A stretch of 64,000 nucleotides of DNA from a virus (IMGVR_UViG_3300031992_000041:1-64000); one strand, 5' to 3'. Numbered from the stretch's first letter, positions 26,157 to 58,880 are shown. Notes: generated by a model not told the origin, from the sequence alone. Made by a program: numbers and translations.

Positions 26157-26215
26157 GTGGAAGGCATGGACTCGAACCATTATAGACAGTCAGGCGAAAC
26201 CGCTCCTACAACTCT
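26157..26215 (-). other. tRNA-like 3' fragment (anticodon-arm 3' half, variable loop, T-arm and acceptor 3' strand); no complete tRNA
   Basis: rc reads …GACTGTCTATAATGGTTCGAGTCCATGCCTTCCACA: perfect T-arm ATGG/TTCGAGT/CCAT; no complementary 5' acceptor strand within 100 nt; sits at the boundary of the low-GC island. Confidence 0.4.
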
Positions 26216-26311
26216 CTGCCCCAACGGCAATCCCCCCAAATGGCCATCCGCCGATGGCCCAGAGTAGAAACTTTACTTGTTGATTTTAACATTGGATTGG
26301 AACAAAAGCCC

Positions 26312-26515
26312 TCACGGGCATATTCTGGTGCCAGTGCCGTCACACTGGCGGCTTAACTCTTCTGCAAACTCGATGGCAATATATTCTTTCAGCCTGTCGA
26401 AAGTGCGGCGCTGAAGCAGACCTGCCGAATCCATCAGGCTGTACAACTCACCAATTTCTTCATGCGACGCTATGATCTCCAGATCGCCATGTGGCGTCTT
26501 TCCGTAATGTATCAT
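26312..26515 (-). CDS. hypothetical protein (67 aa)
   Basis: ORF track. Confidence 0.4.
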   Translation of the reverse strand: MIHYGKTPHGDLEIIASHEEIGELYSLMDSAGLLQRRTFDRLKEYIAIEFAEELSRQCDGTGTRICP

Positions 26516-26527
26516 TCTTTTGATTCT

Positions 26528-27529
26528 TTATCTTGTTACATTTTTCTTGATCTTTGCATTCATCCGTTCAATCTCCTTGGCCTCCTTGGTCATCGTGTTC
26601 AGGATGTCCAGCACGAAAGGCAGGTTGCTGTCATACACTTGCTGCTGCTCGGCATAGCCGGCGTACTTCATGATCGTGTTGACGGTGCCCACCTCGCCGG
26701 TCAGCGCGTCGCGCAGGGGATCGCTCTTGCCGTCAGACTGGAATAGGAGAGGGTAGGAAGCGGCATAGTAGGACATGGCGGTCTGGTAGGCCTGGAAGCA
26801 GATGTGGAAGAGGGTTTCCAAGGATTGCGTCTTCATCTTCGCGGTGAACCACTTTGCCAGCCCGTCAGCCCGGTCATCATCGTACCTGTATTCATAGTGC
26901 AGGCGCAGGTGGATGCTGCCGCCCGTGGTGTCAAGCAGCGACAGGGAGCGCGGCGTGAGGATATGTGCAAGAAACTGTGCCTGCAAGTCCAGAGCCTGGG
27001 CGTCTGTAATGTCTTCTGCAAACAGTTGCGGCGCGATTGCCTGAAGGCTCCGATACTGGCACCATGTGATGTTGTTGCAGGCGGCCTGGGGTAGGGCAAA
27101 GTGCCTGCGGCCTACCCTGACATGCTCCAGCGGCATGATCATCGCGTCGCGCATGCTACTGACATAGCCACGCACGGGGTCACGGCCCTCCCTGACCACC
27201 TTTCCATTCTCGTCCTTCACGGCATCCTCGCCACGGTCACCATACGGATAGTCAAACCAGGCCATGGCATGCCTTGCCACGTGTGCGGCCTCCCTGGCCG
27301 TCACCGCCCAAAGCCCGCCGTCCCTGTCCCGCAGGCGGTAGACCGTCTCTCCGCTGCGGTCGCTGACCGTGGCCTCCTGCCTCCCTGCCTTCAGCCCCAG
27401 CAGCGCAAGCATCGCGGACACCCTGGCCACGTCGGCATTGCCGCCATATCGCCGCTTCACGCTCCACATCATGGAGAGTTGCTGCCACGTGAGCGCGCTC
27501 CAACTTCCGGGTAGTGACTTCAAAACCAT
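26528..27529 (-). CDS. hypothetical protein (334 aa; start at internal MVLKSL)
   Basis: ATG (rc) at 27527-27529, 10 nt downstream of the upstream gene stop; part of the replication module. Confidence 0.5.
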   Translation of the reverse strand: MVLKSLPGSWSALTWQQLSMMWSVKRRYGGNADVARVSAMLALLGLKAGRQEATVSDRSGETVYRLRDRDGGLWAVTAREAAHVARHAMAWFDYPYGDRGEDAVKDENGKVVREGRDPVRGYVSSMRDAMIMPLEHVRVGRRHFALPQAACNNITWCQYRSLQAIAPQLFAEDITDAQALDLQAQFLAHILTPRSLSLLDTTGGSIHLRLHYEYRYDDDRADGLAKWFTAKMKTQSLETLFHICFQAYQTAMSYYAASYPLLFQSDGKSDPLRDALTGEVGTVNTIMKYAGYAEQQQVYDSNLPFVLDILNTMTKEAKEIERMNAKIKKNVTR

Positions 27530-27539
27530 ACTTGCTTGC

Positions 27540-28235
27540 TTATATGAGAGACTTGATCCATCCCAGGGCCTGCCATGTGTTCCAAGAAGAGCGCAGGGCA
27601 TCGTAGAGCGCGTCGTGCGCCTCCTTACCGCTGGTGTACTGTTCAGGCAGGGGGTCAAAGAGTCTGTATGCCGAAGAAGGATCTGCAAGGATCTGTAAAG
27701 GCAAGGCTATGCCGTTGGCCTTCGTACTCTTTCCGTTCATGCTGCGCTCCGCCTCAATAAGTGCCGCCTCCAGAATGATCGTCCGGCAGTCGCGGAACTG
27801 GGTGTGCGGCACGATGTCCTCCAGATTGATGTCATACTTACGGCAGAGGTTCCTGAGGATGGCAATATCTACGTCAGGCCCCTGGCACCACAGGCAGATG
27901 CTCTGCAACTCGTAGCGTTTCACAATTCTACGGATATAGTCAAGCGTGTTTATCAGCACGTCCGTGATCGCCTCCGGCAGTTCCGCCGTCACCGCCGCCT
28001 TCGCGGCATCTCCACGCTGTTCCCACCACCTGATCGTAGCCGGGTCGAAGTCAAATCCGTCCACCACGCACGTCCGCAGGTCCACATAGCCAACGAAAGG
28101 CTCCGTGTCCTGACAGTCAAAGAAGGGGTCACTCTCGTCGTCCCGCTTCCAGGGAACGACGGCCACCTGCATCACAGCCGCATTGGCCGATAGGCTGCAG
28201 GTCTCAAAGTCGATTGTAAAGTCAAGATGTGTCAT
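27540..28235 (-). CDS. DnaQ-like (DEDDh) 3'-5' exonuclease
   Basis: Exo I LDFTIDFETCS, Exo III HDALYDAL motifs; 231 aa. Confidence 0.75.
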   Translation of the reverse strand: MTHLDFTIDFETCSLSANAAVMQVAVVPWKRDDESDPFFDCQDTEPFVGYVDLRTCVVDGFDFDPATIRWWEQRGDAAKAAVTAELPEAITDVLINTLDYIRRIVKRYELQSICLWCQGPDVDIAILRNLCRKYDINLEDIVPHTQFRDCRTIILEAALIEAERSMNGKSTKANGIALPLQILADPSSAYRLFDPLPEQYTSGKEAHDALYDALRSSWNTWQALGWIKSLI

Positions 28236-28263
28236 ATTCGTTACTTATTTATCATAATTCTGA

Positions 28264-28662
28264 TTATGTCGATTTTTCACGCTCCCGCATCCTGCGGCGT
28301 ATCTCGCGGTCTGCTGCGCGTCGGCTGCGCTCTTCCATGATATGCTCGTAGAAGTCGCGGTGACAGGCGATGCCCTTCTTCTGGATGGCCTGCAACTGGC
28401 GTACCGCCTCCTTTTGCCATGCTGTGAGTTCCGCATTGACCGGCAGGCCCGCCATGCAGTCGGACAGGATCCTCGCGATATTGCCGAAACGCCGCGCTGC
28501 TACGGCGCTGAAGCGGCGCATCCTCTCCGTCTCCTGCCTGCATGCACGCCAGTATGCGAGTCCGGCAGACCGCTCCGAAGGGCCCCTGTAGATCCAAACG
28601 GCCTTGCCTGTGAGGCAGGACTTCCTGATGACCGTCGTAGAAGCATTGTGATTCTGATTCAT
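28264..28662 (-). CDS. hypothetical protein (132 aa, Arg-rich)
   Basis: ORF track. Confidence 0.45.
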   Translation of the reverse strand: MNQNHNASTTVIRKSCLTGKAVWIYRGPSERSAGLAYWRACRQETERMRRFSAVAARRFGNIARILSDCMAGLPVNAELTAWQKEAVRQLQAIQKKGIACHRDFYEHIMEERSRRAADREIRRRMREREKST

Positions 28663-28677
28663 ACCTTTCCTCCTTTT

Positions 28678-31600
28678 CTATTCTTCTGCCTCCGGATCAG
28701 TCTCGCCGGCTCCCTGTACCCAGTCGGCGTCGCCGGCATGGGCTTCGTCGTAGAAATGGCGCGGCACGCGGCCCTTGCGGTAGAAATAGTACACGCGCGG
28801 GTACGGAGCCCTCCTCACCAACTCACGGGGCAGGCGGTTGCCGGAGTCATCGGTGGCTACGCTGTAGCCGTCGGTGCCACGGGGGTGCTGCCACGCGGCA
28901 CAGCGGCGGAAGCCGTTCTCCCTGTCCGTCGGCGTGCTCAGCACCACGGGCGGGTCAGCCACGTAGACGCTTGTGCGGATGTAGTCGTCGATGTTGTCGC
29001 GGATGCGCTTGTAGGCACTCTTCAGCGTCTTCTCGCCGACGGTGACACCGCAGTAGTCGAGCAGCGAGATGGCCAGTTCGCGCTGGGCGATGGGCTGGCC
29101 GATATGCCTGCTGTCGGAGAGATACCCAGCAATCCATCGGGTGAACTGCTCGTCCTTCGATGCCGCCAGTGCCTGGCGCAGCATGGCGCGGCTGTCACGC
29201 GGCGGCCTCATGGTCTCGTCAGGGAACTGCAGGAACAGCCTCACGCAGCCGAGCAGCACATTCCTCGCCTCGTTCAGGAGTGCCGGCGGCAGGTTCCTTG
29301 CCACCTCCTTGATGCCGTACTGCATCCTGAAGTCGTCGGCAGGCGTATGAGCCGGTCGCGAGCCGTCGATGCTCCGGGGGTGGTACCAGTCTGACACCAG
29401 CACCTGATAGGTACGCCGCGACGTCGAGTCGCTGCTGAGATCCAACTGCTCGTTCGATGCCACCACGAACTTCGGCAGGTCATCGCCCTCCAGCACGACG
29501 CTGGAGCGGTAGAGCCCGCGCGAGGTTAGTGAGAGCGTATAGTTGTAGAGCGTCTTCGGCGAGAAGCCCTGAGGCAGTTCGTCGAGTGCCACGATGGTGT
29601 GCAGACCCGGCACTACCTTGTCGAGTTCCTGCGTCAGCGTGACGTTTCCACCCTCCAGTGCCTTGCCGTCCACCTTCAGCACGCGGCGCACCAGTCCAAG
29701 GAGTTCCAGGATGGCAGTCTTTCCCGTTCCGCCACTGGCCAGGTCCTCGCGGCGTGTCCCGTTGTCGGTGATATGTATGTACTGCTGTCGGTTGGCAGGT
29801 CGGTGGCGCACCAGTGCAGAGCCGATGGCATGGAGCATGGCCACGAAGTACATGTCCTGCACCTGTCTCTCGGTAGCCGTTAGTTCGGCACCGGCAGCCT
29901 CCTTCTCCCAGAAGATGCGTGATGTGTTGTACAGGAAGCGGAAGTGCAGGGGCATCTCGTCGAGGGGCTTGTCCATGACCAGACGGTACTTCCAGAGCGA
30001 AGCCCATGCGTCCCAGCGCATGTTCTCCTGCGCGCACTCGTCGGTGGTGTGTGCCGCCCGGATAATCTCGTCGTGCTTCTCCAGTTCCCCCTGATAGAGC
30101 GGGTTCACGACTACGCGCCATGCCTGTGGCAGCAGCGTGAACGTACCGCCGAGGATGGCCTCCGAGTTGGTCCACCATTTCATGCGGCCGTAGGGCACGG
30201 TCTCGATGCCGTCCTTCGTCACGAGCACGGCGGTGTTGTCAAAGAAGAAGTGGTCGAAGTCCTCGCCGAAACTCTTCTCGTCGAAGTCGAGCGTCTCGAT
30301 CGACTCCATCGTCGACTGCTCCAGTTTCGCGGAGTAGATGGCGCGGCTCAGGGCTCCCTTGCCGTCGTTATACTCCTTGTGAGCCCGCAGCCACTCTGCC
30401 ATCAGGTCGCGCGACTGCGCCACGATCTTGTTGGGGCTTCCCTTCTCACCGGGGAAGCACTCGGTGTATTTCCTGTCGTTGCCCAGCAGGAAGAAACGGC
30501 TGAACGACACCTTGCCCTGCTGCATCACGCGGCGCACCATGCCGCGTGCCCGCAGGAAGACCGGGGTGTTGCGCAGGTCGAACTTATACCTTGCCCTTCC
30601 GGTGCCGTCGGCATCCTTGCGCTCGCTCTCCCACTGCCAGAACTGCGTCGTCGGCGTGTCGAAGAGGGCGTTGTCGAACCAGTCCACGGGGTCGTCGTGC
30701 TGCAGGTCGGCGGGCATCCTGCCCTCCACCTCCTGAAAACGAGTGATGAAGTCGGTCACGTCCTTGCACCGGCGCTCCGCCGTCCTGCCGTTCACAATCT
30801 CTCGTAGTTCCTTCGGCAGGCGGAGCCAGTGGATGTTCGGAGAGTTGAGCGCTATCGCCTGACTGGCGGCCAGCCCCGTCTCGTCCTCGTCGTAGCACAC
30901 GTACAGGCCGCCGTCGGCCGTCACGGCCTGCAACTTCCTCAGCAGCGCGCGCAGCCAGCGGTTGGGCCGAAGGTTATCACCCTTCTTGTTAAAGCCGCTC
31001 TGCTCGCTATGCAGCCATACGACGTGCGCGTCGCTGTGGCTCCACACGGCGATGGCGTCACGCGGCCCTGAACAGAGCACCACACGACCGAAGCGCGGCC
31101 TCGCCGTCTTTTCTTCCTTGTCGCCGTCCTTGTCTCTCCTCTGTTCAACAAGCGGATGCCGGCTGTCCGGCTGCGGCACCACGCCGTCATCAAGATAGTC
31201 GCGCAACGCGGCGTCGGCATACCAACGGTGGTCAAGGTCGGCATCCTCGCTGACGTGCCACCAGGTCCACTTCGTATTGGCGTAAGTAGTCCTCGGCTCG
31301 TATTTCTTGATACCCCACGGATAGCGGAAGATAAACATCGGGTAGTTCTTCGTAGCCCTGACGATCATGACCACCGCACCGCCCTGCTTCGGCGTCTCGC
31401 GCTTGATGAACCGGCTGATCGGCTCAACGCCGAACACGCCGCACACCTCTTCGCCCCAGGCCTGTATGGTCCTGGTCTCCGCCTTCTGCCCGCGATAAAA
31501 ATCCCTGCCAAAGGAGCAGCGGTAAAGCGCCGCTCCAGTGTCAGGGTCAAAATCTGTCATTAAATCGCCAAATCTCACTTCCGATCTTCTGTTTCCCGTA

Positions 31601-32154
31601 TATTCGTCTAATTCGTTCTTTTTCATCCGGTGCGTCGACATCTCCACCTTCAGGCCCAGGGCCTTCAGGCCTTCCTCGGTCCACTGGCCAGGCTCGAAGA
31701 GCGGCTGGTCGCCACTCCAGTCGGCATACTGTTTCTCTTCCTTGCGGAACTCGTCCCATCCCACGATGCTCACACGCAGACTGCCCGAGCCGTGCCTGCC
31801 ATCCTCCTTCGGCTCCGGCTCCAGTTCCACCTCGCAGCGCGTCATAAGTTCCGAAAGCACCATCGCCAGATCCTCGGCGGGCACCTTGCCGGCAGGCAGC
31901 CCCATCAGCCTCGCAGCCAGTTGTATGGCGCCATAGCCCGTCTCGCCGCAGGCAAAGCACTTGAAGCCAAGGTCTGTGGCATCGTCGCGCAACGCCTTGT
32001 CAACCACCAGCGACGGGTGATGGTCGTCATGCCATGGACATTGGTACGTGGCAAACGCGCCGGTCTTCGACTCGTGCTTCGGCACATAGCCCCAGCCTCG
32101 CATCACCTCCACGAGCGGTATGGCATTCAGTATCTTCAGGTTAGTATCCGTCAT
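28678..32154 (-). CDS. DNA primase / helicase (CHC2 zinc finger N-terminus, P-loop NTPase in the C-terminal half)
   Basis: 1158 aa; CPWHDDHHPSL…FKCFACGETG (DnaG-type CHC2 zinc finger); Walker A ASGGTGKTA. Confidence 0.8.
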   Translation of the reverse strand: MTDTNLKILNAIPLVEVMRGWGYVPKHESKTGAFATYQCPWHDDHHPSLVVDKALRDDATDLGFKCFACGETGYGAIQLAARLMGLPAGKVPAEDLAMVLSELMTRCEVELEPEPKEDGRHGSGSLRVSIVGWDEFRKEEKQYADWSGDQPLFEPGQWTEEGLKALGLKVEMSTHRMKKNELDEYTGNRRSEVRFGDLMTDFDPDTGAALYRCSFGRDFYRGQKAETRTIQAWGEEVCGVFGVEPISRFIKRETPKQGGAVVMIVRATKNYPMFIFRYPWGIKKYEPRTTYANTKWTWWHVSEDADLDHRWYADAALRDYLDDGVVPQPDSRHPLVEQRRDKDGDKEEKTARPRFGRVVLCSGPRDAIAVWSHSDAHVVWLHSEQSGFNKKGDNLRPNRWLRALLRKLQAVTADGGLYVCYDEDETGLAASQAIALNSPNIHWLRLPKELREIVNGRTAERRCKDVTDFITRFQEVEGRMPADLQHDDPVDWFDNALFDTPTTQFWQWESERKDADGTGRARYKFDLRNTPVFLRARGMVRRVMQQGKVSFSRFFLLGNDRKYTECFPGEKGSPNKIVAQSRDLMAEWLRAHKEYNDGKGALSRAIYSAKLEQSTMESIETLDFDEKSFGEDFDHFFFDNTAVLVTKDGIETVPYGRMKWWTNSEAILGGTFTLLPQAWRVVVNPLYQGELEKHDEIIRAAHTTDECAQENMRWDAWASLWKYRLVMDKPLDEMPLHFRFLYNTSRIFWEKEAAGAELTATERQVQDMYFVAMLHAIGSALVRHRPANRQQYIHITDNGTRREDLASGGTGKTAILELLGLVRRVLKVDGKALEGGNVTLTQELDKVVPGLHTIVALDELPQGFSPKTLYNYTLSLTSRGLYRSSVVLEGDDLPKFVVASNEQLDLSSDSTSRRTYQVLVSDWYHPRSIDGSRPAHTPADDFRMQYGIKEVARNLPPALLNEARNVLLGCVRLFLQFPDETMRPPRDSRAMLRQALAASKDEQFTRWIAGYLSDSRHIGQPIAQRELAISLLDYCGVTVGEKTLKSAYKRIRDNIDDYIRTSVYVADPPVVLSTPTDRENGFRRCAAWQHPRGTDGYSVATDDSGNRLPRELVRRAPYPRVYYFYRKGRVPRHFYDEAHAGDADWVQGAGETDPEAEE

Positions 32155-32156
32155 CG

Positions 32157-32444
32157 TTATTCCGGTTTCACCAACAGTTCGTTCCTGAGCGGTTCGAGCA
32201 GGGCGCGGTACAGCACGCGCTTCTCCTCTGGAAAGTCACTCTCCTCAATGACCTGCAACTGAAACAAGGCCTGCGAGATGCCGAACACCTCGCAGATCTT
32301 CTCCACGGTGCCCTTCTGCGGATATGTCCTGCCGGTCTCGATGGAGCACACGGCATTGGTGCTCATGCCACAGCACTCCGCCAGTTGCGCCTGCGACATG
32401 TTATGCTTCAGCCGAAGCGTCTTTATTGCCTGTCCTATGTCCAT
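32157..32444 (-). CDS. XRE-family HTH transcriptional regulator (Cro-like position)
   Basis: LRLKHNMSQAQLAECCGMSTNAVCSIETGRTYP helix-turn-helix. Confidence 0.85.
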   Translation of the reverse strand: MDIGQAIKTLRLKHNMSQAQLAECCGMSTNAVCSIETGRTYPQKGTVEKICEVFGISQALFQLQVIEESDFPEEKRVLYRALLEPLRNELLVKPE

Positions 32445-32853
32445 GACTCGTTCTGTTTTTCGTTTTCTTGCCGGCAGCCTGCAACTTCTCCACCTGTCCC
32501 GACTTCTCGGCCAGTTCTTTCTTCATCTCTTCGATCGCGATATTGTACTCTCCGATCTGCTGCTGGTACCCGGACTTCATCTGCTCCATACGCTCGCGGT
32601 AGTCAGTACCCTGACGCTCCAGTTCCGCATCCTTCTCCCTGACACGCTCACGAAGATTCTCGATGAGCGTCTGGCTGCTGGTCAGCATCCTGGAGTCCTC
32701 CTCCATCTTATCGACAACATGACAATACAGGTCCTGCAAACACTTCACATGCTTTGCTGTCTTCTCATACTTCTCGCTCAACTCGTCCAGGTCATCCTGA
32801 TACGGGTTCTTGCCAAGAAAGGCCTTCCACAGGTTCGTTAAATATCGCGCCAT
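32401..32853 (-). CDS. coiled-coil protein (start at MARYLTNLW)
   Basis: ATG (rc) at 32851-32853; first gene of the leftward operon downstream of the divergent promoter region; the upstream part of the track ORF covers the AT-rich promoter region. Confidence 0.45.
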   Translation of the reverse strand: MARYLTNLWKAFLGKNPYQDDLDELSEKYEKTAKHVKCLQDLYCHVVDKMEEDSRMLTSSQTLIENLRERVREKDAELERQGTDYRERMEQMKSGYQQQIGEYNIAIEEMKKELAEKSGQVEKLQAAGKKTKNRTSHGHRTGNKDASAEA

Positions 32854-32892
32854 AGAATATTTTTTTTGAAAATTTAGTCCATAATTCACGAA

Positions 32893-32918
32893 TTTGTTGT
32901 AACTTTGGCGCAAAGATA
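32893..32918. promoter_or_regulatory. interleaved divergent promoters / operator palindrome TTGTAACTTTG-gcg-CAAAGATACAA
   Basis: TAACTTTG (rightward, 32897-32904) and rc TATCTTTG (leftward, 32908-32915) both match the Bacteroidota -7 consensus TAnnTTTG; together they form a near-perfect inverted repeat. Confidence 0.5.
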
Positions 32919-33015
32919 CAACTTTTTCGTGATACGACAATCGTTTTAGTATAGTTTTAACATCATTTTCGTATGTTTAAATTTTGAAAGCAACAACCTA
33001 TAAAGATGATGAAAT

Positions 33016-33720
33016 ATGAAAAAATGGAGTTTTAACAGACTGCTATTTAGCAGATTATCAGACGTTTTAGACATCTCTGGCACAGAGATAGCCAAGCGAT
33101 GCGGAATAACACAGCAAGTCCTGAGTCGTTACACGACAAACGAAATTGTTGTATCTGTGCAGACGCTTATAAAAATCTGCAACGCATTGCGCATGCCTAT
33201 CCACTTCTTCGTGTCAGAGGATGACAACCACATTATCCCGAACCGCGAGAGCGCCACCGTCGCTGCAGACAGATGGTGCCCGGTGACGTGGGACAGCCAG
33301 GCCGTTGAACAGACCTTTGGCGACGGGCGCATCTTTTGGAAAGATGTGGCAAAGGCGATGGGCATCACCTCGCAGAAACCGCACGAGCGCTTCTTGTTGC
33401 GCACCAGATTCCCGGTAACAGACTTCCTTTCCACGTGCAGCCATTTCGGCATCTCGCCATTTACGTTTCTTGTTGACAACAACCGCTACAACAAGCAGAA
33501 GGCAACCACCCCTGCCGTGCCAAAGGACGGCGACGCAACCCTGCGGGCACAGATCAAAGACCTGCAGAAGAAAGTAGAGAGACTTTCCACCACCGTCGAT
33601 GACCTCACAACCAGATACAGGGCTCTTCTGGATAGGCACGACCTTCTGGAGCAGACCGTGCGCCAACACCTCGGCTACAGTCCTATTGACCTGGCCGCCG
33701 ACGACCCTGACCAGAAATGA
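33016..33720 (+). CDS. double-HTH transcriptional regulator with C-terminal coiled-coil (CI-like repressor candidate)
   Basis: only plus-strand gene in the first 58 kb; DISGTEIAKRCGITQQVLSRYT (HTH) and a second HTH-like segment; divergent from the XRE/primase operon. Confidence 0.7.
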   Translation: MKKWSFNRLLFSRLSDVLDISGTEIAKRCGITQQVLSRYTTNEIVVSVQTLIKICNALRMPIHFFVSEDDNHIIPNRESATVAADRWCPVTWDSQAVEQTFGDGRIFWKDVAKAMGITSQKPHERFLLRTRFPVTDFLSTCSHFGISPFTFLVDNNRYNKQKATTPAVPKDGDATLRAQIKDLQKKVERLSTTVDDLTTRYRALLDRHDLLEQTVRQHLGYSPIDLAADDPDQK

Positions 33721-33735
33721 GAAGACCACAACAAA

Positions 33736-33776
33736 AAAAAACGCCCTTCGCTGCAAAGCGAGGGGTGTTTTTAAAA
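33736..33776. terminator. bidirectional rho-independent terminator
   Basis: A-run, GCCCTTCGCT-gcaa-AGCGAGGGG hairpin, T-run; lies between convergent genes. Confidence 0.6.
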
Positions 33777-33844
33777 TCACGGTCAAAAGGAACCGTCTCT
33801 CACGCGCACGTATGCGCATTAATAAAATATGTGCGCTACTCAGG

Positions 33845-34060: not shown

Positions 34061-34070
34061 GTTACTTGTT

Positions 34071-34571: not shown

Positions 34572-34610
34572 AACGATTTTGTTTTAATTGTTATTGTCTT
34601 GTCTCTACTA

Positions 34611-35342: not shown

Positions 35343-35388
35343 AATGCTTAACTGTTTAACCGATCAGTCCGGGGTCTTAAATAATGTT

Positions 35389-49713: not shown

Positions 49714-49726
49714 AGTCGTATATGTT

Positions 49727-50403: not shown

Positions 50404-50415
50404 TTCTCGTTTTAG

Positions 50416-50763: not shown

Positions 50764-50775
50764 AGTCGTTTCGTT

Positions 50776-51420
50776 TTATGGATTACCCGTCTCTCTCAGA
50801 AATGCGTCTTTCTCGCTGTCCATCAGTCCGAAGTAGAACTCCGTCATCAGATTCACCTGATCCGTACCGTTCAGGTGTCCCCATAGTTGGCGTATCTGCG
50901 CCATCCTGTCCTGCCCCTGCTGCAACTTCTTCGGGTTCTTTACCCTTGCCAGCACATGAGCCAGGCACTCATAGATGCTACCCTGCACCTCGTGCTCGAA
51001 GTCACCATCGACATAGCAGTCAGGATTGTCCCCGTCCATGTCGGTGCTGCCCACCGACCAATAGCCCTCGCCGTCATAGTCCACCACGATGCGCTTGCCG
51101 AAGGGCTGCAGCGTCTCGTTGGCCTCGCGCAGTGTCTCGTCGAAGTCGTGCTCAGTCACTTCCAGCAGGGTCAGCTCCGTAATGTGTGCCGTCTCTGCCT
51201 CGTCACTGCTCTCATACTCCGCCACATAGCCATCCTGCGTCAGCTGTCCGTCCTTGTCCTTGCGGATGTTCAGCTCGAAGTAGCCCTCCGTGTCGGCATG
51301 GTGTTCGTCCTCCACGAAGATGAGTGCCGTCTCTTCGTCGGGATAGTTGCGGTCCAGTTCCGTCCGCATCCCCTCAACAATCTGTCCGTCGAATGACGTG
51401 AATTTGAATCTAATAATCAT
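50776..51420 (-). CDS. hypothetical acidic protein (214 aa)
   Basis: ORF track. Confidence 0.5.
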   Translation of the reverse strand: MIIRFKFTSFDGQIVEGMRTELDRNYPDEETALIFVEDEHHADTEGYFELNIRKDKDGQLTQDGYVAEYESSDEAETAHITELTLLEVTEHDFDETLREANETLQPFGKRIVVDYDGEGYWSVGSTDMDGDNPDCYVDGDFEHEVQGSIYECLAHVLARVKNPKKLQQGQDRMAQIRQLWGHLNGTDQVNLMTEFYFGLMDSEKDAFLRETGNP

Positions 51421-51439
51421 TGTCTCGTCGTTTTAATAG

Positions 51440-51826
51440 TTATGCCCATTTGCATTTCCCGTTCCTGACCGTTCCGTGGTCGCAGCCGGAATCGGGCCAG
51501 ATTTTAATTTCAGAGCCGTCAGCCATATAAGGTGCAATAACCTCAAAGGCATCCATCATAACACCTTCCCAGCCATAACAGGCATCGAAGTCGGCATACA
51601 TCCACTCCTTGTCAGGGGCGGTGTCGAGCCTGCCTTTCCAACCGCCGAAGAATATGCCCATCAGGTCATGCAGGTTGTCAGTACCTATACCAAGTTCCTT
51701 GAAGTGGTCAAGGTTATAGTTGATACGTTCCTCTTCATGCCTGTCAAGTTTAGCCTGCAGTGCTTTCTTTGCACCGTCCTCGTCAGTGAATCGTGCTTTA
51801 ATTTCTACAGAATAACATTGTCCCAT
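51440..51826 (-). CDS. hypothetical protein (128 aa)
   Basis: ORF track. Confidence 0.5.
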   Translation of the reverse strand: MGQCYSVEIKARFTDEDGAKKALQAKLDRHEEERINYNLDHFKELGIGTDNLHDLMGIFFGGWKGRLDTAPDKEWMYADFDACYGWEGVMMDAFEVIAPYMADGSEIKIWPDSGCDHGTVRNGKCKWA

Positions 51827-51841
51827 AATTCGTTGTTCTTT

Positions 51842-52639
51842 TTAGTCCACAATCCCGCCGCCGTAGAACTTGTCGAAGTCAGACTTCAATCCCTTAGCGG
51901 TCTTCTTCCATTCCTCATAGCTTGCCTTCGCCTTGTCGTTGACGATTTCCCATTCAGAAGCCATCTGGCGGCGATAGTTGCGGTAGCCTGTATAGTTGTC
52001 CGTATAGTCACGGAACACATCATCAAGGGTCCCGCCCTCAATCGTGGTGTAGTTGCCGTGCTGGTCTTTCACCACCAGGCGAATACCCTCGCTGCTTGCC
52101 GTGAATGTCGATTTGTTGCCCCACAACTCCGCGTTGATAGCGGCATGCAGAGAGTCGCACATCCGGTATATCAGTCCACCGTCAGTCAGAATAGGGAAGT
52201 CAACATACTTCAGTTCCATCTTCCGCTGGACGTGGTACTCATGGTTCCAATTCGGTGAGCACGCATTGGAGAATGATATAAGATACAGCTGCCTATCGTC
52301 TTTGCCGATAGAGATAGCGTAGAAGTACCGCCATTCCCATTCTCCGTCGTAGTGTCCTAAGTGGTTTATCGCTTCTTCAGTCAAGTCTTTCTGCTCAAAC
52401 TGGATGATAGTGTGATAATATTTACCGCATGTTCCGCAAGTACCCTCGCTTGGTCTGTGTCCGTTGTCGCTTGGGTAGTCAAACTTTCGGTCAGGACCAT
52501 AGACATCATTCACAATCCTCTCGAACATCGCCCTGCTTTCCTTGTCCTCCGAGCGCAGAAACGATAGCGCCGAGGTCATTCTGATCTTCTCGTCGTTTGC
52601 GAGATAGTTCAAATAAATCTTCGTTTTCTCCATTGTCAT
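51842..52639 (-). CDS. hypothetical protein (start at MTMEKTKIY)
   Basis: ATG (rc) 52637-52639; the upstream part of the track ORF overlaps the next gene. Confidence 0.5.
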   Translation of the reverse strand: MTMEKTKIYLNYLANDEKIRMTSALSFLRSEDKESRAMFERIVNDVYGPDRKFDYPSDNGHRPSEGTCGTCGKYYHTIIQFEQKDLTEEAINHLGHYDGEWEWRYFYAISIGKDDRQLYLISFSNACSPNWNHEYHVQRKMELKYVDFPILTDGGLIYRMCDSLHAAINAELWGNKSTFTASSEGIRLVVKDQHGNYTTIEGGTLDDVFRDYTDNYTGYRNYRRQMASEWEIVNDKAKASYEEWKKTAKGLKSDFDKFYGGGIVD

Positions 52640-52646
52640 TACTATT

Positions 52647-53489
52647 TTAGTCGTTGATGTCTCTTTGCAGGCAGAGCACGTCGCCCGTCCAGACTTGGAA
52701 CAGGGTGTGCATGGCTGCCAGGTCGGCAGGCTCGTAGCCGTCGGGGATGACGCCAAACACGTCGCAGCCCTCGCAGTCGCCGATATGCTCGGCGTTATAT
52801 ACCACCACCGAGCCGTCCTCGTTAAGCGCAAAGGCGATATGCGCCTCCTGCATCCTCTCATAGAGTGCCTGCATCTCTTTGGCCAGTGCCTCCTGTGCAG
52901 GGGTAAGCCGTATCAGCAGGTCGATGTCCTGCCGACTGCTTGTCTGCTCAAAGTAATAGTCGCGTCCGAGGAACGTTCCACTCTTTCCGGCGGAAAGGTT
53001 CTTCGTGAGCAGATAGAATCTGGCACCGCACGTCGCCCCCTTTTTCGAGGCGGCACTCATATAGTCGTCCAGTTCCTTGCCGAGACGCTCACGCAGGGCT
53101 GTGTCGATAAGGCTATACGCCCCGCCCTGGAGCATGTGGCTCCCAACCACGAGGATAGGAGTCACCGTTCCGTCGGCCGCCCGCTCCATCAGCGTCCGAG
53201 GCTCATACTTACGGCCGTAGATATACATAAACAGTCGCTCGAATATCTCCTGCTGCATATCTGGTGCAAGGTCGTCAAAGTCCTTCTCTTCTTTATAGCC
53301 ACTGTAGTCCATGCCCACGGCTATCTCGCCGCCGCACGGATCCTGATAGAGATATTCGGCCTTGGCACAGGAACCCCTACGCTCCATCCAAATATCACAC
53401 TCTCTCTTATTTCCATCACTGGTATCCATGAGGATAGCCGACAGCGAACGACGAATGTCGTCACGCTTCAATTCTTTTAATACTTCCAT
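52647..53489 (-). CDS. hypothetical protein (280 aa)
   Basis: ORF track. Confidence 0.5.
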   Translation of the reverse strand: MEVLKELKRDDIRRSLSAILMDTSDGNKRECDIWMERRGSCAKAEYLYQDPCGGEIAVGMDYSGYKEEKDFDDLAPDMQQEIFERLFMYIYGRKYEPRTLMERAADGTVTPILVVGSHMLQGGAYSLIDTALRERLGKELDDYMSAASKKGATCGARFYLLTKNLSAGKSGTFLGRDYYFEQTSSRQDIDLLIRLTPAQEALAKEMQALYERMQEAHIAFALNEDGSVVVYNAEHIGDCEGCDVFGVIPDGYEPADLAAMHTLFQVWTGDVLCLQRDIND

Positions 53490-53516
53490 GTCTTAATCTC
53501 TTTAATCTGTGGTTTC

Positions 53517-54572
53517 TTACGCTGCCAGCGGCAGGGCCAGCGGGTGCATGGCCTTGGCCACAGCGTCGTACTTACGCAGGATATAGTTCGTCGCCTTCTG
53601 CACATGGTCGATGACGCTTGGGATAAAGTCCTTGTCGTCGCGCAGCGCCTGCCGCCAGTTCTGCACATAGGCGATGTGGTTCTCATCAAGTAACTTGCCG
53701 ATGCCCAGCATGGAGCATACGCAGGCAGCCGTCAACTCCGCCACGAACTCCTCCTTGGCATAACTCTCCGTGCCGAACGAGCCGCCCAGATCGCGCTTCA
53801 CGTCGGGAGCTGTAGAGTGCGCCATCTCATGTATGGCCGTGGCATAGAACTGATGGTCGCCCTTGAACTGGCTCCGATTGGGCAGATGCACACAGTCCTC
53901 CTTGGGGCTGTAGTAGCACTCATGGCCGCCGAACACCACCTTGCAGCGCCACTCGCCACCCTCGATCATCTTGTCGAGCACCTCGTCCACCGTGCCCTGC
54001 TCATAGTCGTGCGGCGGGATAGCCGTCAGTTTCTCCCACTTCTCGGGGAACTTCTCCCTGAAGTTGGTCTGGGATAGGTTGAACTCGGGGAAGGCCCGCA
54101 TAGAGAAGAACTTTCTGCACTCGGCCTTTTCCTCGTCCGATAGTTCGTCGTACTCCTTTGGCGTCAGTCGCTTGCCGTCCTTGTAGAAGTTAGGCAGCAT
54201 CTTCACCACGGGGAAACTGCTCTGGAACACGGGCAGGCCCTTGTCGTTGAACACAGGCATGCCGTCCTCGTCCGTCTTCATATTCAGGCTCAGTCCCATG
54301 TCCGTCAGTTGATCGAAGGTCAGGAAGTAAGGCGTCTCCCACCCCTTGATGCTGCACAATAGCGTCAGCAGGAAGTTGTTCATGCCCCGATAGGGCTTGC
54401 TCCTGCGCTGATAGTTGGCGGGCTCCCCGTGCGCCGGTGCCACCCACGGCTTATTATACTTTGCGCCCTCCATCTCATCAAGGGCGACGGTGAATAACTC
54501 GGCATACTTCGCCTTCTGTTTGTCGTTCATCTGGAACCCCTTACGGGCTCCGTTAGTCTTTGTCTGTTTCAT
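53517..54572 (-). CDS. ardC: ArdC-like antirestriction protein (ArdC_N/DUF1738 plus zincin HExxH domain)
   Basis: N-terminal YNKPW…PYRGMNNFLL…GWETPYFLTFDQ pattern of ArdC_N; C-terminal AIHEMAHST zinc-metallopeptidase motif. Confidence 0.75.
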   Translation of the reverse strand: MKQTKTNGARKGFQMNDKQKAKYAELFTVALDEMEGAKYNKPWVAPAHGEPANYQRRSKPYRGMNNFLLTLLCSIKGWETPYFLTFDQLTDMGLSLNMKTDEDGMPVFNDKGLPVFQSSFPVVKMLPNFYKDGKRLTPKEYDELSDEEKAECRKFFSMRAFPEFNLSQTNFREKFPEKWEKLTAIPPHDYEQGTVDEVLDKMIEGGEWRCKVVFGGHECYYSPKEDCVHLPNRSQFKGDHQFYATAIHEMAHSTAPDVKRDLGGSFGTESYAKEEFVAELTAACVCSMLGIGKLLDENHIAYVQNWRQALRDDKDFIPSVIDHVQKATNYILRKYDAVAKAMHPLALPLAA

Positions 54573-54710
54573 AACTCGTAATTTTTTGTTTAATTTTGAA
54601 TTTAATTTTGTTCAATTTCCACCCGTCAGGGTGTTAAAAAAGGGGAGCCTGGGGCAGCCAAGCATCGTCCTCCCTCTCCATAGGCATTTGGGCTCCCCTA
54701 TAGATATCGC

Positions 54711-55511
54711 CTACGCTGCCTTACCCATAGCGTTCACGATATCCATCGCCTCCTTGTCGCCGGCGATAACGCGTTTGATCAGGTCGGCCACCTCCTGCTC
54801 GGTATAGACCTTACCCTCGGGCTTCTCTGCCTTGTGCTCCTCGCGCTCGGCCTTCGCCTGAGCCTTGTCAGCGGCACGCTTTTCGTCGTACTTGGCCAGC
54901 ATAGCCTTGCAATCGTCGATGCTCTTGCCCTCGTTCAGCGCGTCGCACAGTTGCTTGGCGAACGCCACGTATGCCTTGCCGAACAGCAGGCAGCCGTCCT
55001 GCGGGCTTCCGTGCAGCACGGCGGCTGTATCTTTCTTATAGACCGCATCGTCATCCTTGAACCCTGCAATCTTGGCACAGGTCTTGCCCTTCTTGTTCTG
55101 ATAGGTCGAATAGGTGAATGACTGGCTCTTCTTATTCGCAGCCTGCGAAGAATCAGGTGCCTGTCCCTGTGATTTGCCGCCCTTAGCCTTGCCCTTGGGC
55201 TTTTCGGCCTTAGGCTCGCCCATCTTCACGGTCTTGGCCTTGGGCTTCTCAGGCTTGATGTCCTCGACCTCCTCCACGTCGTCGCTCGCCTTGGTCTCCG
55301 TAGCGGTAGTGCCGTCAGCAAACTTCCAACCGCCTGCCAGCAGTTTCTCCACCTGCGCCACAGGCATAGGCATCGCCACTGGTGCACGGTCGCCAGAGGT
55401 AAACTCCACCTTGATTTTCTCGTCGTCGATAGCCTCGGTGACGACATACTTCATGTTACCATTCACGATTGTCTTGCCGATAAGGTCGGCGGCCTTTACA
55501 TTCTTTGTCAT
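54711..55511 (-). CDS. hypothetical Lys-rich protein (266 aa)
   Basis: ORF track. Confidence 0.5.
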   Translation of the reverse strand: MTKNVKAADLIGKTIVNGNMKYVVTEAIDDEKIKVEFTSGDRAPVAMPMPVAQVEKLLAGGWKFADGTTATETKASDDVEEVEDIKPEKPKAKTVKMGEPKAEKPKGKAKGGKSQGQAPDSSQAANKKSQSFTYSTYQNKKGKTCAKIAGFKDDDAVYKKDTAAVLHGSPQDGCLLFGKAYVAFAKQLCDALNEGKSIDDCKAMLAKYDEKRAADKAQAKAEREEHKAEKPEGKVYTEQEVADLIKRVIAGDKEAMDIVNAMGKAA

Positions 55512-55676
55512 AGTCTCTGAATTTTTATTGTTACGATTTTGTTCCGTTAATACTCACGCTGCCATAGCCAGCGTATCCTGCTCGTCCTCGTCGTACTCTA
55601 CGCCGAGCGAGTTCATAAAGCGCTCCATCTTGGCACGTTCTCTTCTGTCTAATCTTCTCATAGTCGTTTTGATAGT

Positions 55677-55964
55677 TTACGCTGCCATAGCCATCTGCAC
55701 GGGCAGGGCCATGTTCAGCAGTTGCACGTTCACTTCGGGTAGGAATGGCATATCGAGCCATACAACCGTATAGCCCCAGTCCTCGTCTATAGGCGAGAAC
55801 GTCCCGAAGAACGCCTCGCAAATCATTCTCACGTCGGCCATCACGGGCACGTTAGCCTTGTCGATAGCCAACTGGTCTTCGTCACTCCAGTCGCAGAACT
55901 TTGCACCGTGCGCAGTAGCACACTTCTGCATAGCCTCTTTCAGATTCTCCAAATTTGCTTTCAT
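55677..55964 (-). CDS. hypothetical protein (95 aa)
   Basis: ORF track; ends …AMAA. Confidence 0.45.
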   Translation of the reverse strand: MKANLENLKEAMQKCATAHGAKFCDWSDEDQLAIDKANVPVMADVRMICEAFFGTFSPIDEDWGYTVVWLDMPFLPEVNVQLLNMALPVQMAMAA

Positions 55965-55966
55965 AA

Positions 55967-56314
55967 TTATGCTGCCTTAGTGTTCATTCCAAAATCTTCT
56001 CTCTCGTCCCAGGGGATATAGAGCAGTTCGCTCTCGATGAGTGCGTCGATAGCCACACGGGCACACTTACAGGCCCACTCGTTGCGCGGATCGAAGCGAC
56101 CCTTGCGTTCACAGATAGCCAACTGCTTCAAATACTCGATACACAACTTGGCACGCTCCTGCACCAGATAGCGGTGGTCTTGCGCCATAGCCTGCGCCAC
56201 CTCTTTCGTGTGGCTCAGACCGCCGTTAATAAACCTGCTCTCCGTCTCCACGAACTCCACTTCTCGCTCGTAGAGTTTTGCCTTAATCTCATCATACATA
56301 GTCTTGCCCTCCAA
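55967..56314 (-). CDS. hypothetical protein (115 aa)
   Basis: ORF track. Confidence 0.45.
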   Translation of the reverse strand: MEGKTMYDEIKAKLYEREVEFVETESRFINGGLSHTKEVAQAMAQDHRYLVQERAKLCIEYLKQLAICERKGRFDPRNEWACKCARVAIDALIESELLYIPWDEREDFGMNTKAA

Positions 56315-56487
56315 TTTTTAGTTCGACATCATGCAGCCGATAGTCAATAAGGCTGCATCAACAATCCCCATAAACGTCAGCGCGGTAAGAGTCCGCACAA
56401 TAATGCGCTCGCCACGTGGCGTGTTCGCCCAGCGACGCGCTTGTGCCAGGCGATAGTAAACCTTCCGTTTCATAGCCGTATAGTCGT

Positions 56488-56766
56488 TTAATAGTGACGA
56501 ATACCCAATACCCGATGCCCAGTCAGGCGGTCGAGTCGCCTGCTGATTTCGATATAGAGAAACTCCACGCTCAGCGGAGCCACAAAGATGCACGGCAGAC
56601 CGATAGCCAGCCGTACCCATGTCGGTGTGCCGTCGGGGATAGCGTTTGCCAGCGTCGCTGCCGTCAGATACATAGCGTAGAACGTGATGGAAAAACCCGC
56701 TACCATCCACAAAAATCGCACCATCTTAATAGCAACCTTAGTTGCAATAGCCTTAATCTTCTTCAT
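56488..56766 (-). CDS. hypothetical membrane protein (93 aa; start at MKKIKAIA)
   Basis: ATG (rc) preceded by GGGAGGACAAGACT; two predicted TM helices. Confidence 0.4.
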   Translation of the reverse strand: MKKIKAIATKVAIKMVRFLWMVAGFSITFYAMYLTAATLANAIPDGTPTWVRLAIGLPCIFVAPLSVEFLYIEISRRLDRLTGHRVLGIRHY

Positions 56767-56783
56767 AGTCTTGTCCTCCCATA

Positions 56784-56981
56784 TTAGGCGCAAAACCCGT
56801 CGAAGGGGTTCATGTCGATGATAACGGCGTGCTCGCCATACTCCTCCGCCATGTCGGCGAAGGCACACTCCATAGCCTTTGCGTCGGCGGATGTCAGGTG
56901 CATACTTGCAGCCATAGTCGCTGCGATAGATACGATACGCGCACTCTTCTTGGCGGTGCTTACCATAGTCTTTGCTTTCAT
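56784..56981 (-). CDS. hypothetical protein (start at MKAKTM, or at MVSTAKK 15 nt downstream)
   Basis: ORF track with the start moved past the overlap; AGACTATGG context at the alternative start. Confidence 0.35.
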   Translation of the reverse strand: MKAKTMVSTAKKSARIVSIAATMAASMHLTSADAKAMECAFADMAEEYGEHAVIIDMNPFDGFCA

Positions 56982-57162
56982 AATTGTAATTTTTGAATTG
57001 TTGAACACTTGGTTTATTATAACACGTTAAACACATCATTCTCGGTCACACTCTCCACACGCACCTGCTGCCCGTGGTCTTGCATAGTCTGTGCAATAGA
57101 CTCGCACGTTATCCTCTCGCCAATAAACAGGGTGGCGATGCCCATCATAATCTTTGCCATAG

Positions 57163-57396
57163 TTATGCTGCTTTTTTAATACCTGTTTTATGCCTGATAG
57201 AGTCATACTTTGTCGGCTCGTCTGCCGTGAAGATCTGGCGCACGAACTCGCGCACCGTCAGCCCCTGAATCCACGCACCGCCCATGAGCAGCATAGCCAC
57301 TGCCACGGGCGCCTGCCACACGTTTACCACTGCACCGGTAGCCACTGCGAGCCCCAGCGCCATCAGGATAGCACCTGCAATTTGTTTATTCTTCAT
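57163..57396 (-). CDS. hypothetical membrane protein (77 aa)
   Basis: two TM helices; ends …KKAA. Confidence 0.5.
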   Translation of the reverse strand: MKNKQIAGAILMALGLAVATGAVVNVWQAPVAVAMLLMGGAWIQGLTVREFVRQIFTADEPTKYDSIRHKTGIKKAA

Positions 57397-57421
57397 AATT
57401 TCGTCCTCCGAATTTTAGGGG

Positions 57422-57607
57422 TTAGTCAAAATCAAAAACTGTCTCGATAAAGTCACGCAGCCGCTCGTCGTCCCACTTGCAGCCGAGGTCACGGGCAAAT
57501 CCGAACAGGATGTCCTTGACCTCAGGCTCGCTATAGGTGCGCTCGTCGCGCAGTTCATGCAACTTGGGGCGCAACTGCATAATGATACACTTTGCTTCTT
57601 CTGCCAT
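57422..57607 (-). CDS. hypothetical protein (start at MAEEAKCII)
   Basis: ORF track; start adjusted to the ATG after the AGGACTATGG context. Confidence 0.4.
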   Translation of the reverse strand: MAEEAKCIIMQLRPKLHELRDERTYSEPEVKDILFGFARDLGCKWDDERLRDFIETVFDFD

Positions 57608-57620
57608 AGTCCTGATGCCG

Positions 57621-58031
57621 TTAGTAAATTCTACTTTTGCATACACACGTCAGACGACTACCCTCAAAGCGTTTCACCACGATAGTCCTGCCGATGGTTC
57701 CGGCCTGCTCCCTCGATGCGCCATTCTTTGCTTTCTTGGGCTGCAACTGTCCTTTGCCCTCGTTGAACATACGGCTGCGGTTCTCCAACTGGGGCATAGT
57801 GTCCGCCATAGTCTCACGACGCACACGGCTGCGGTCGCTCTCCATAGACCGGCCAGATACACCCCGACGCTCCGCACGAATCCGTTCACGCTCACGATAC
57901 GCCATCAGGCGGTCGTGCTGCTTGCGCTTGGCGATTAGCCACTCACTGCGTTTGCTCATGCCAATCTGCTCTGAAATAGAGGGTGTGCCCCACTCCTCGG
58001 GCAGGACACACATCTGCGATAATGTAGCCAT
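57621..58031 (-). CDS. hypothetical Arg-rich protein (136 aa)
   Basis: ORF track; GCATACGACTATGG context. Confidence 0.5.
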   Translation of the reverse strand: MATLSQMCVLPEEWGTPSISEQIGMSKRSEWLIAKRKQHDRLMAYRERERIRAERRGVSGRSMESDRSRVRRETMADTMPQLENRSRMFNEGKGQLQPKKAKNGASREQAGTIGRTIVVKRFEGSRLTCVCKSRIY

Positions 58032-58079
58032 AGTCGTATGCTTTGATTGTTAATAATTCGTTCTGTCAATTCCCACCGA

Positions 58080-58754
58080 TTAGGCTGCTTTGCGGCTGCT
58101 CTTCTTGGTGCTGCTCTTCTTAGTTCCGGCGGCTGCTTTCTGTGCATTAGAGGCCACTTTCTTCTCTTCTGCTGCGATAGCCCAGGAGCCATTGACGAGT
58201 TTTGCAACACGTACCCACTTCTCGCTCTTCTTGTCGCCCATATTCACCCAACCACTCTTCAGGGCTGCGCACTTTTCTGCGCTCTTCTGAATTTTCTCCA
58301 TAGTCGAGGTAATAAACACACTCTGCTGCAAGCCACGCAGCACGTTAGTAGCATTGACTACGACATCGGTCTTGTCACCTTTGTCTGCTGCTGATACGAG
58401 GGGTACGAGAACTGACTGCGATACGGTCTTAAATTCTCCGTCTTTCTCACTGCAAAGGGTGTACTCCTTGCCGTTGATAGTCACCTGATAGCCGACGGAG
58501 CGCATGATGCACACTTTGCCGTCTTTCATCATTCGAGCACTCCACGCAGTGAAGATGTCCTTTGGGGTGTAACTGTTCTTCAGAACATGAACACCCAGAG
58601 ACTGCATAAGTTCAAGTGGGCGAACTTTCTCCTTATCGCTGATAGCGATATAACCACCGATGCCGGACAGTTGCTTTGCAACCTGACTCCACGACATTGC
58701 TTTTGCACTGAATGACTTAACACCTGCGTTGATAGACTTCTTTGTAGTAATCAT
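58080..58754 (-). CDS. hypothetical protein (224 aa, Lys-rich C-terminus ending …RKAA)
   Basis: ORF track. Confidence 0.5.
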   Translation of the reverse strand: MITTKKSINAGVKSFSAKAMSWSQVAKQLSGIGGYIAISDKEKVRPLELMQSLGVHVLKNSYTPKDIFTAWSARMMKDGKVCIMRSVGYQVTINGKEYTLCSEKDGEFKTVSQSVLVPLVSAADKGDKTDVVVNATNVLRGLQQSVFITSTMEKIQKSAEKCAALKSGWVNMGDKKSEKWVRVAKLVNGSWAIAAEEKKVASNAQKAAAGTKKSSTKKSSRKAA

Positions 58755-58810
58755 AACTTGTCCTATTTAGCCCATAGGTTGGGGGTCTTAAAAGTGAAAC
58801 ATAAAATAGT

Positions 58811-58880
58811 CCCAAACTCATCGGAATCGAACCGATGACAACCGATAATAGACGCAGTCCGCCACCTACTGCATTGTCGC
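58811..58880 (-). other. tRNA-like 3' fragment, paralogous to the element at 26157
   Basis: rc reads …GGACTGCGTCTATTATCGGTTGTCATCGGTTCGATTCCGATGAG: T-arm ATCGG/TTCGATT/CCGAT; shares the ATAGAC…CAGTC flank with the first copy; no 5' acceptor strand. Confidence 0.35.

Follow-up and report, generated by a model that had tools for sequence, protein, structure and literature searches.

The DNA analyzed here is a 64,000-nucleotide (nt) viral stretch, IMGVR_UViG_3300031992_000041:1-64000 (hereafter the window, at its full length). It is phage-like in that nearly all of its genes lie on the minus strand, and INPHARED contained no close relative of it. Two elements on this strand, copy 1 (26157-26238) and copy 2 (58811-58921), had been described in an earlier note as paralogous 3′ fragments of transfer RNA (tRNA), each with a T-arm and an acceptor-like 3′ strand. 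The T-arm strings were found as described, ATGGTTCGAGTCCAT at 26166-26180 and ATCGGTTCGATTCCGAT at 58820-58836, both on the minus strand; each occurs once in the window, where dinucleotide shuffles predict none. A scan of the window for a G-TTCRANY-C loop on a stem of at least 4 bp returned three hairpins against 0.46 expected, and two of the three are those of copies 1 and 2, both intergenic and on the gene strand. While the T-arms are real, the truncation is not: each copy possesses a 5′ strand that closes a multi-helix junction. The statement that a matching 5′ acceptor or D-arm is missing therefore does not hold, since TTTGGG pairs with CCCAAA in copy 2, and in copy 1 CCTTCCA pairs with TGGGGGG and a D-like hairpin is present as well. 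Both elements are tRNA-shaped RNA folds, complete with an acceptor-like helix, and not truncated tRNA genes.

The earlier view that neither is a functional, decoding tRNA is upheld. ARAGORN with default settings reported no tRNA and no transfer-messenger RNA (tmRNA) in the window. Rfam 15 gave no match at the gathering score and none at E ≤ 1 over the whole window, and a local search of both copy regions at E ≤ 10 returned nothing relevant, the tRNA model RF00005 included. No tmRNA was found by ARAGORN with -m -ps70 or by the Rfam tmRNA models, and the YrlA model (RF02553) had no match at E ≤ 1 in the window or at E ≤ 10 in the copy regions. As in a tRNA, the T-arm adjoins the acceptor 3′ strand, with a spacer of 1 nt (or an A.G pair) in copy 1 and of AG in copy 2. 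A 5-bp anticodon stem with a 7-nt loop is present in neither copy; its place is taken in copy 2 by a 5-bp helix (P2) that encloses a 60-nt insert, and in copy 1 by an arm of 8 bp that contains a mismatch and carries a hairpin inside it.

Copy 2 is a three-way junction of the helices P1 and P2 and the T-arm, with an inserted central domain. The acceptor-like 5′ strand of P1, CCCAAA (58916-58921), pairs with TTTGGG (58811-58816), which together with the tail ACTA spans 58807-58816. The junction sequence ATGGTTG (58909-58915), conserved in relatives, is a candidate D-loop mimic. The T-arm, CATCGG-TTCGATT-CCGATG (58819-58837), was located by both the string scan and the hairpin scan.

Copy 2 belongs to a conserved RNA family, designated type A, that has no model in Rfam 15. 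Leaders of relatives were collected by gene look-up and by a DNA-pattern scan of metagenomes, and the fold is kept in every relative examined (about 20 distinct sequences). Its parts follow in the order P1, ATGGTTG, P2, one U, the 6-bp T-arm, AG, the 3′ strand of P1 and the tail. P1 varies among relatives (CCCTAA/TTAGGG, TCCTAA/TTAGGA, CCTCAA/TTGGGG) with all of its cells paired, and P2, which is CAACC/GGTTG in the window, appears elsewhere as CACCC/GGGTG, CGCCC/GGGCG, CATCT/AGGTG or CATAC/GTATG. The GG-TTCGATT-CC part of the T-arm is invariant and its outer stem pairs covary. The tail reads R-C-W-A in nearly all members, its C and A (columns C65 and A67) being invariant. Over the three helices of 19 distinct sequences, standard pairs fill 95.4% of the 323 pair cells and 10 of the 17 pairs change on both sides; no shuffle attained these values, and pairing fell to 26-55% when the partners were slid by 1-3 columns. 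The automatic alignment from the model search was left out of these counts because it misplaced several long forms. G-U wobbles occur in type-A pairs only on the gene strand, a pointer that the RNA is read from that strand.

A covariance model, R1, was built from seven minimal relatives (2.33 effective sequences) with the window excluded. Run over the whole window with filters off, it matched copy 2 at 39.2 bits (E = 1.7e-8), and it matched all 20 relatives searched, each time just 5′ of the same gene, which encodes a protein of 224 amino acids (aa). A weak R1 match at 32871-32961, a promoter-like region, was rejected as a tRNA-like structure (TLS). The representative genomes of GTDB gave chance coding matches only, the element being absent from them, and a full-text literature search found no description of such an element. 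Three other interpretations of copy 2 were discarded: a hammerhead-like core (CUGAUGA), which is not conserved in relatives; a small protein encoded across the element (open reading frame 58717-58995), whose frame is broken in the relative L121; and a tRNA-Asp pseudogene, the matching block being a lineage-specific stem sequence. Contig L154 (JAEEGL013825007.1) carries at about 1150-1400 a CRISPR array with the repeat GTCTTAATCCTTATTGTTCTGGAACATACTCGGTAAG, and one of its spacers matches the type-A T-arm and P1 3′ strand, which offers a lead to the host.

The central domain of copy 2 (58845-58895, minus strand) lies in the loop of P2. ATAATGG/CTATTAT forms its outer stem and GCAGT-AGGTGGCGG-ACTGC (58854-58872) its inner hairpin, and it also contains the conserved motif ATCGCGACAATG. 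A domain of 50-60 nt occupies this loop in the window (50 nt) and in about half of the relatives; in L134-L136 it is placed ahead of the junction instead. Its ATCGCGRCAATG motif and the AGGTGGCGG loop of the inner hairpin are conserved, and both stems covary: in 11 long-form relatives 98.5% of cells are paired and all 12 pairs change on both sides, in segments that were picked by hand, which favours pairing. Six relatives (L121, L148, L149, L157, L161 and L166) have a minimal form without the domain, which spans about 60 nt from P1 to P1, or 75-80 nt when the extracted flanks are counted. The P2 loop measures 3-9 nt in most minimal relatives and an intermediate 25 nt in L167.

The 224-aa gene (58080-58754, minus strand) lies directly downstream of copy 2. 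In every relative examined a type-A element precedes its start codon by 40-110 nt, and copy 2 stands in the same position. A Bacteroidetes-type -7 box, TAtcTTTG, can be read at 59239-59246 (minus strand), in agreement with the promoter that had been proposed near 59236. From this putative promoter a leader of about 475 nt would extend to the 224-aa start codon, and a terminator-like hairpin (59338-59351) is present just upstream of the box. The placement of both elements on the minus strand, in leaders on the gene strand, is upheld. For the 224-aa protein 177 homologues were found, one of them named ‘uncultured Prevotella sp.’, and their contigs reach about 127 kb. Type A occurs in a clade of phage-like contigs of roughly 50-140 kb, possibly large gut phage-like elements associated with Prevotella. 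The 224-aa protein has no Pfam match, and its AlphaFold model (predicted local distance difference test score, pLDDT, 78) has no fold match in the PDB.

Several further features were noted around this leader. The motif CTTTGACTTAyTnA..A, 3′ of the promoter box, is common to the start of the copy-2 leader (59180-59215, minus strand), to its relatives and to a leader of contig L190 (16860-16885) that holds the YrlA-like modules described below. Upstream of the copy-2 leader, a 1.4-kb non-coding region contains a 145-bp tandem repeat (59451-59807; 2.5 copies, 94% identical), and relatives have repeated CGTCCCCAGC...GGCATATT motifs at this place; these may be iterons or an origin. One lineage (L125, 1-778) has an IS605 OrfB/TnpB gene (Cas12f-like) some 1.7 kb ahead of type A; no such gene stands at this place in the window.

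A second, paralogous TLS, type B, was found directly 3′ of the 224-aa gene in four relatives with a minimal type A: L121 (3729-3803), L157 (7217-7305, minus strand), L167 (1414-1502) and L169 (8455-8529, minus strand). In these relatives the gene therefore has a TLS on either side. Type B was detected in the R1 search with weaker scores than type A and is absent from the window. It consists of P1 (TCCGTG/CACGGA), the junction CATGGTGTG, a covarying P2 and a T-arm that sits on P1 without a spacer, and its tail is ACTA or GCTA (ACTT in one case). Its best resemblance in Rfam, far below threshold, is to mascRNA (E = 0.069; 22.6 vs 42.5 bits), with which it aligned end to end. A joint model of types A and B, meant for a second test of copy 1, was abandoned since the P1 strands of the two types fell into different registers in the MAFFT alignments.

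The constant position of type A invites a regulatory explanation, in which the TLS would be an operator that binds either a small ligand or a protein, perhaps the 224-aa product or a host factor that binds tRNA, and would control translation or stability of the downstream message, an arrangement reminiscent of thrS with its tRNA-like operator. Such a role would suit the high conservation of the junction and loop nucleotides and the unvarying location of the element, 40-110 nt ahead of one and the same conserved gene. It is harder to reconcile with the 224-aa protein, in which no RNA-binding domain or fold is recognisable, with type B, which sits downstream of the gene, and with the minimal and long forms, which differ by a whole domain and yet precede the same gene. 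We regard this explanation as rather improbable.

Copy 1 is an 82-nt cloverleaf-shaped element (26157-26238, minus strand) in the minimum-free-energy fold of region 26140-26260 (minus strand). Its acceptor, TGGGGGG/CCTTCCA (26232-26238/26158-26164), has 7 bp, two of them G-U. Inside it are a D-like hairpin, GCC-GTTGG-GGC (26218-26228), a long aberrant arm (26184-26217; 8 bp with one mismatch, enclosing a small hairpin) and the T-arm ATGG-TTCGAGT-CCAT (26166-26180), which is preceded by ATA and followed by a single G before the acceptor 3′ strand. A GC-rich hairpin, GGCCATC-GGCG-GATGGCC (26242-26259), lies 3 nt upstream of the acceptor and is the sole part of the fold retained in the centroid structure. 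When the T-arm was fixed and its flanks were shuffled 3000 times, an abutting helix of at least 6 bp arose in 48 shuffles and a three-branch cloverleaf in one. ARAGORN with -ps80 reported an 82-nt gene at 26157-26238 whose acceptor, D-arm and T-arm are those of the fold and whose anticodon arm is nonsensical; the anticodon arms given with -ps80 and -ps70 are inconsistent. Copy 1 was not called in the default, intron, mitochondrial or tmRNA modes.

Immediately after copy 1 comes an unrelated 78-aa gene (25897-26133, minus strand), the first gene of a low-GC island (22300-26133), with its AGGAGG ribosome-binding site at 12 nt from the element. Here the operator explanation takes a particular form: the acceptor strand CCTTCC is complementary to GGAGG 12 nt downstream and could alternatively pair with the AGGAGG ribosome-binding site, giving a possible on/off toggle, although this toggle rests on one sequence.

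The only other carrier of copy 1 is an identical 1.1-kb contig (L187), and a DNA-pattern search found no further homologue. Homologues of the 78-aa gene in other phages stand inside operons without a copy-1-like element, and next to the homologues of the 67-aa gene that lies upstream, other genes come directly, again with no copy 1. The element is also absent from 16 relatives with a shared primase/386-aa module and from the 12 closest relatives with a shared DUF5131.

Copy 1 could be a functionless, decayed remnant, either of a phage tRNA gene (tRNA-Asp-like or tRNA-Asn-like) or of a partial duplicate of copy 2 at an island recombination junction. It is a singleton known from this phage only, its position coincides exactly with the GC break, and patchy blocks of it recur in copy 2. 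Its GACTGTCTAT and GGTTCGAGTCC correspond to the anticodon loop and the T loop in over 119 tRNA-Asp(GTC) genes of phages, the genes hit by the tRNA-Asp pattern GACTG..TCTAT..GGTTCGANTCC. In addition, an island-operon relative follows a tRNA-Asp gene and a degenerate tRNA-like element. Against decay stands a three-branch cloverleaf whose acceptor has all of its 7 bp and adjoins a paired T-arm, a structure that was reached in 1 of the 3000 shuffles and would be unexpected in a decaying sequence. The GC content of copy 1, 56%, matches the backbone and not the island, the Rfam tRNA model had no match at E ≤ 10, and neither an att-like repeat at the other island end nor an integrase match among the larger island open reading frames tested was found. 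We consider the remnant explanation, which applies to copy 1 only, possible but doubtful. An isotype ranking, in which the 3′ 26 nt of copy 1 equalled a phage tRNA-Asn at 25 of 26 positions, was set aside as circular, as the database had been selected with our own patterns.

Copy 1 does adjoin the drop in GC at about 26.1 kb, as had been noted, and it had been proposed that the elements might be remnants of site-specific insertion into a tRNA gene, i.e. attL/attR-like cores. This proposal found no support. No second copy of the copy-1 3′ end was present within 21800-26400, and integrase families (PHROGs, Pfam) had no match in the six larger island open reading frames, the three small ones (43-63 aa) lying outside the scan. 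The sole boundary repeat is a 25-nt imperfect direct repeat (21/25) at 26122-26146 and 22424-22448, which on the minus strand reads AGGAGGAATAnnnATGAAAnCAAAA, a strong ribosome-binding site with a start codon; it may be a cassette-exchange junction. Among the island genes is one for a Lar-like restriction-alleviation protein (25105-25413), and homologues of the 78-aa gene are located on lower-GC phage contigs. On one of these, L181, the operon comes after a tRNA-Asp gene, an unusual tRNA with four anticodon bases and a degenerate tRNA-like element.

Whether the two copies are paralogous, as originally stated, is not established. R1 found no match to copy 1 at E ≤ 10 in the region 26.1-26.3 kb, although with so few effective sequences (2.33) a distant kinship is possible. 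In a local alignment of the two copy regions only 1 of 2000 shuffles was as good, and with the T-loop removed 48 of 2000 were (p about 0.02), so that the upstream similarity is marginal. An exact 12-mer, TTGTAGGAGCGG, is common to both copies; it is not conserved, for TGTGAGAGCAGG takes its place in a relative with 99% identity in the recovered stretch of the 224-aa gene. The shared ATAGAC…CAGTC flank that had been pointed out is indeed present in both copies. In copy 2, GACTGCGTCTAT (minus strand) is made up of ACTGC, the 3′ strand of the inner hairpin, then GT, then CTATTAT, the 3′ strand of the outer stem, i.e. of the 3′ strands of two covarying stems; relatives have unrelated sequence at this position and retain the pairing.

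The window contains no tRNA genes, and it encodes an RtcB RNA ligase (616-1842, minus strand; Pfam PF01139, 2e-61). No match to Rsr/TROVE was found among about 40 window proteins scanned, and RtcA was likewise not seen among the RtcB neighbours. Methylases, an ArdC-like protein and a large SNF2-type protein are also encoded, and a radical-SAM protein (9501-10292, minus strand; a weak Pfam match just below the cut-off) was noted among YopX-domain genes. In relatives sharing the primase, Rfam searches revealed YrlA-like modules in tandem (L190, 16996-17128; L195, 7342-7457) with the order T-arm, hairpin, D-arm. They score below threshold (38-40 bits against a gathering score of 69; E 1e-6 to 1e-7) and lie within a 500-nt intergenic leader, and real tRNAs occur near them in some relatives. 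Bacterial YrlA is found in rsr-yrlBA-rtcBA operons.

These findings bear on a further explanation, in which a released TLS would act in trans, either as a decoy or scaffold for tRNA-binding factors such as anticodon nucleases and tRNA-targeting defences, or as a Y-RNA-like partner of the phage RtcB in RNA repair. The RtcB gene in the window, the YrlA modules in leaders of relatives and the occurrence of several TLS types in the clade speak in its favour, as do the conserved loops of the central domain, which suggest a specific binding partner. Yet the TLS lacks the anticodon stem-loop, the very part that anticodon nucleases recognise; the window itself has neither a YrlA-like match nor a TROVE/Rsr match among the proteins scanned; RtcB is encoded 25-57 kb away from the elements; and the fixed place directly 5′ of one gene points more to a role in cis. 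A role in trans thus appears unlikely to us. A broader proposal combines these observations: the clade may keep a toolkit of non-decoding tRNA mimics (type A, whose conserved insert would bind a ligand or protein; type B; the YrlA-like modules; and singleton cloverleaves such as copy 1) that would act with RtcB in RNA-level counter-defence or repair. This is speculation, and we give it little credence at present.

Of the three roles proposed earlier (att-like remnants, decoys, and RNase P or RNase Z processing signals within polycistronic transcripts), the last best fits the anatomy of the elements. We tentatively favour it, with slightly less than even confidence: the elements would mimic tRNA and be read as such by the tRNA-processing enzymes RNase P and RNase Z. 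These enzymes and the CCA-adding enzyme recognise tRNA via its elbow. P1 (6-7 bp) stacked on the T-arm (4-6 bp) would form a helix of about 11-12 bp, close to the length of the acceptor/T minihelix of tRNA, with a variable non-decoding arm in place of the anticodon arm. The invariant T-loop and the GG-containing junction ATGGTTG could then build an elbow, and this elbow, together with the acceptor-like helix and the R-C-W-A tail, whose invariant C and A recall the RCCA end of tRNA, may be recognised by these enzymes of the host. P1 would then be cleaved on its 5′ side by RNase P and on its 3′ side by RNase Z or a different nuclease. Cleavage would part the long leader or the upstream cistrons from the downstream reading frame and could also free a small stable tRNA-like RNA. 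No terminator is predicted between either TLS and the downstream start codon, and the presence, in some relatives, of type A before and type B after the 224-aa gene fits the excision of a monocistronic message.

Several observations weigh against processing by these enzymes. In type A two nucleotides (AG) separate the T-arm from P1, where tRNAs have none, and P1 begins with C and not with G, which RNase P prefers. The conserved loops of the central domain, ATCGCGRCAATG and AGGTGGCGG, suggest an additional ligand or partner and would be left unexplained by a pure processing signal. Overall folding energy is no better than that of shuffles (z = -0.49 for copy 1, and +0.27), and the alignments used for covariation, being hand-anchored on the proposed helices, are biased in favour of that structure. 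Copy 1, with no homologue and no comparative support for its fold, could be a decaying sequence. For both copies the cleavage sites, the transcription start and the small RNA are predictions only.

Irrespective of its function, type A is a covariation-supported family that, in many gut metagenome contigs, keeps to one position in a leader of early appearance ahead of a conserved gene. It provides a concrete case in which Bacteroidetes phages, with their unusual leaders and translation signals, possibly use host tRNA processing to shape their transcripts, and it is linked to other tRNA mimics (YrlA-like) and to RtcB within the same clade. It also illustrates that a ‘tRNA fragment’ spotted by eye can be a complete non-tRNA fold.

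For eukaryotes, organelles and RNA viruses there is ample documentation of tRNA-like structures within messenger transcripts; to our knowledge, such structures have rarely been documented in DNA phages. The closest functional precedents for the processing reading are mascRNA/menRNA (RF01684) and the t-elements of plant mitochondria, tRNA-shaped modules that serve as cleavage signals for RNase P and RNase Z; mitochondrial tRNA punctuation is a further precedent. Like the elements described here, mascRNA and the t-elements are small and form part of a longer transcript: they have an acceptor-like helix and a canonical T-arm, the D-arm is reduced or missing, and there is no anticodon for decoding. 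Unlike them, the window elements are neither eukaryotic nor organellar, they have no mascRNA match and their cleavage is a prediction; moreover, type A has the 2-nt spacer between T-arm and P1 and often a 50-nt insert. YrlA is likewise a tRNA mimic with a canonical T-arm, occurs in bacteria and phages and is linked to RtcB in some bacteria. However, its order is permuted (T-arm, acceptor-like hairpin, D-arm) inside a long Ro-binding stem, whereas the window elements keep the tRNA order, with P1 closing the junction, and copy 2 has no D-arm.

The tRNA-like domain of tmRNA shares with these elements an acceptor and T-arm, an analogue of the D-loop without a D stem, and a long helix that replaces the anticodon arm. 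Read from its first G, the acceptor of copy 1 gives G-C, G-C, G.U and then a discriminator A. This combination resembles the alanine identity set, and given the G.U third acceptor pair and the discriminator A, copy 1 might be charged with alanine after CCA addition. In contrast to tmRNA, the window elements have no pseudoknots, tag reading frame or encoded CCA, and they are 82-111 nt long against about 350 nt. With phage tRNA genes they have in common the T-loop GGTTCGAnTCC and, in copy 1, a 7-bp acceptor, a D-like hairpin and a T-arm; comparable intergenic regions of relatives hold real tRNAs and degenerate tRNA-like sequences. Both copies differ from these genes in lacking the 5-bp anticodon stem with its 7-nt loop, and the conservation of copy 2 as a non-tRNA fold across the clade argues against simple decay.

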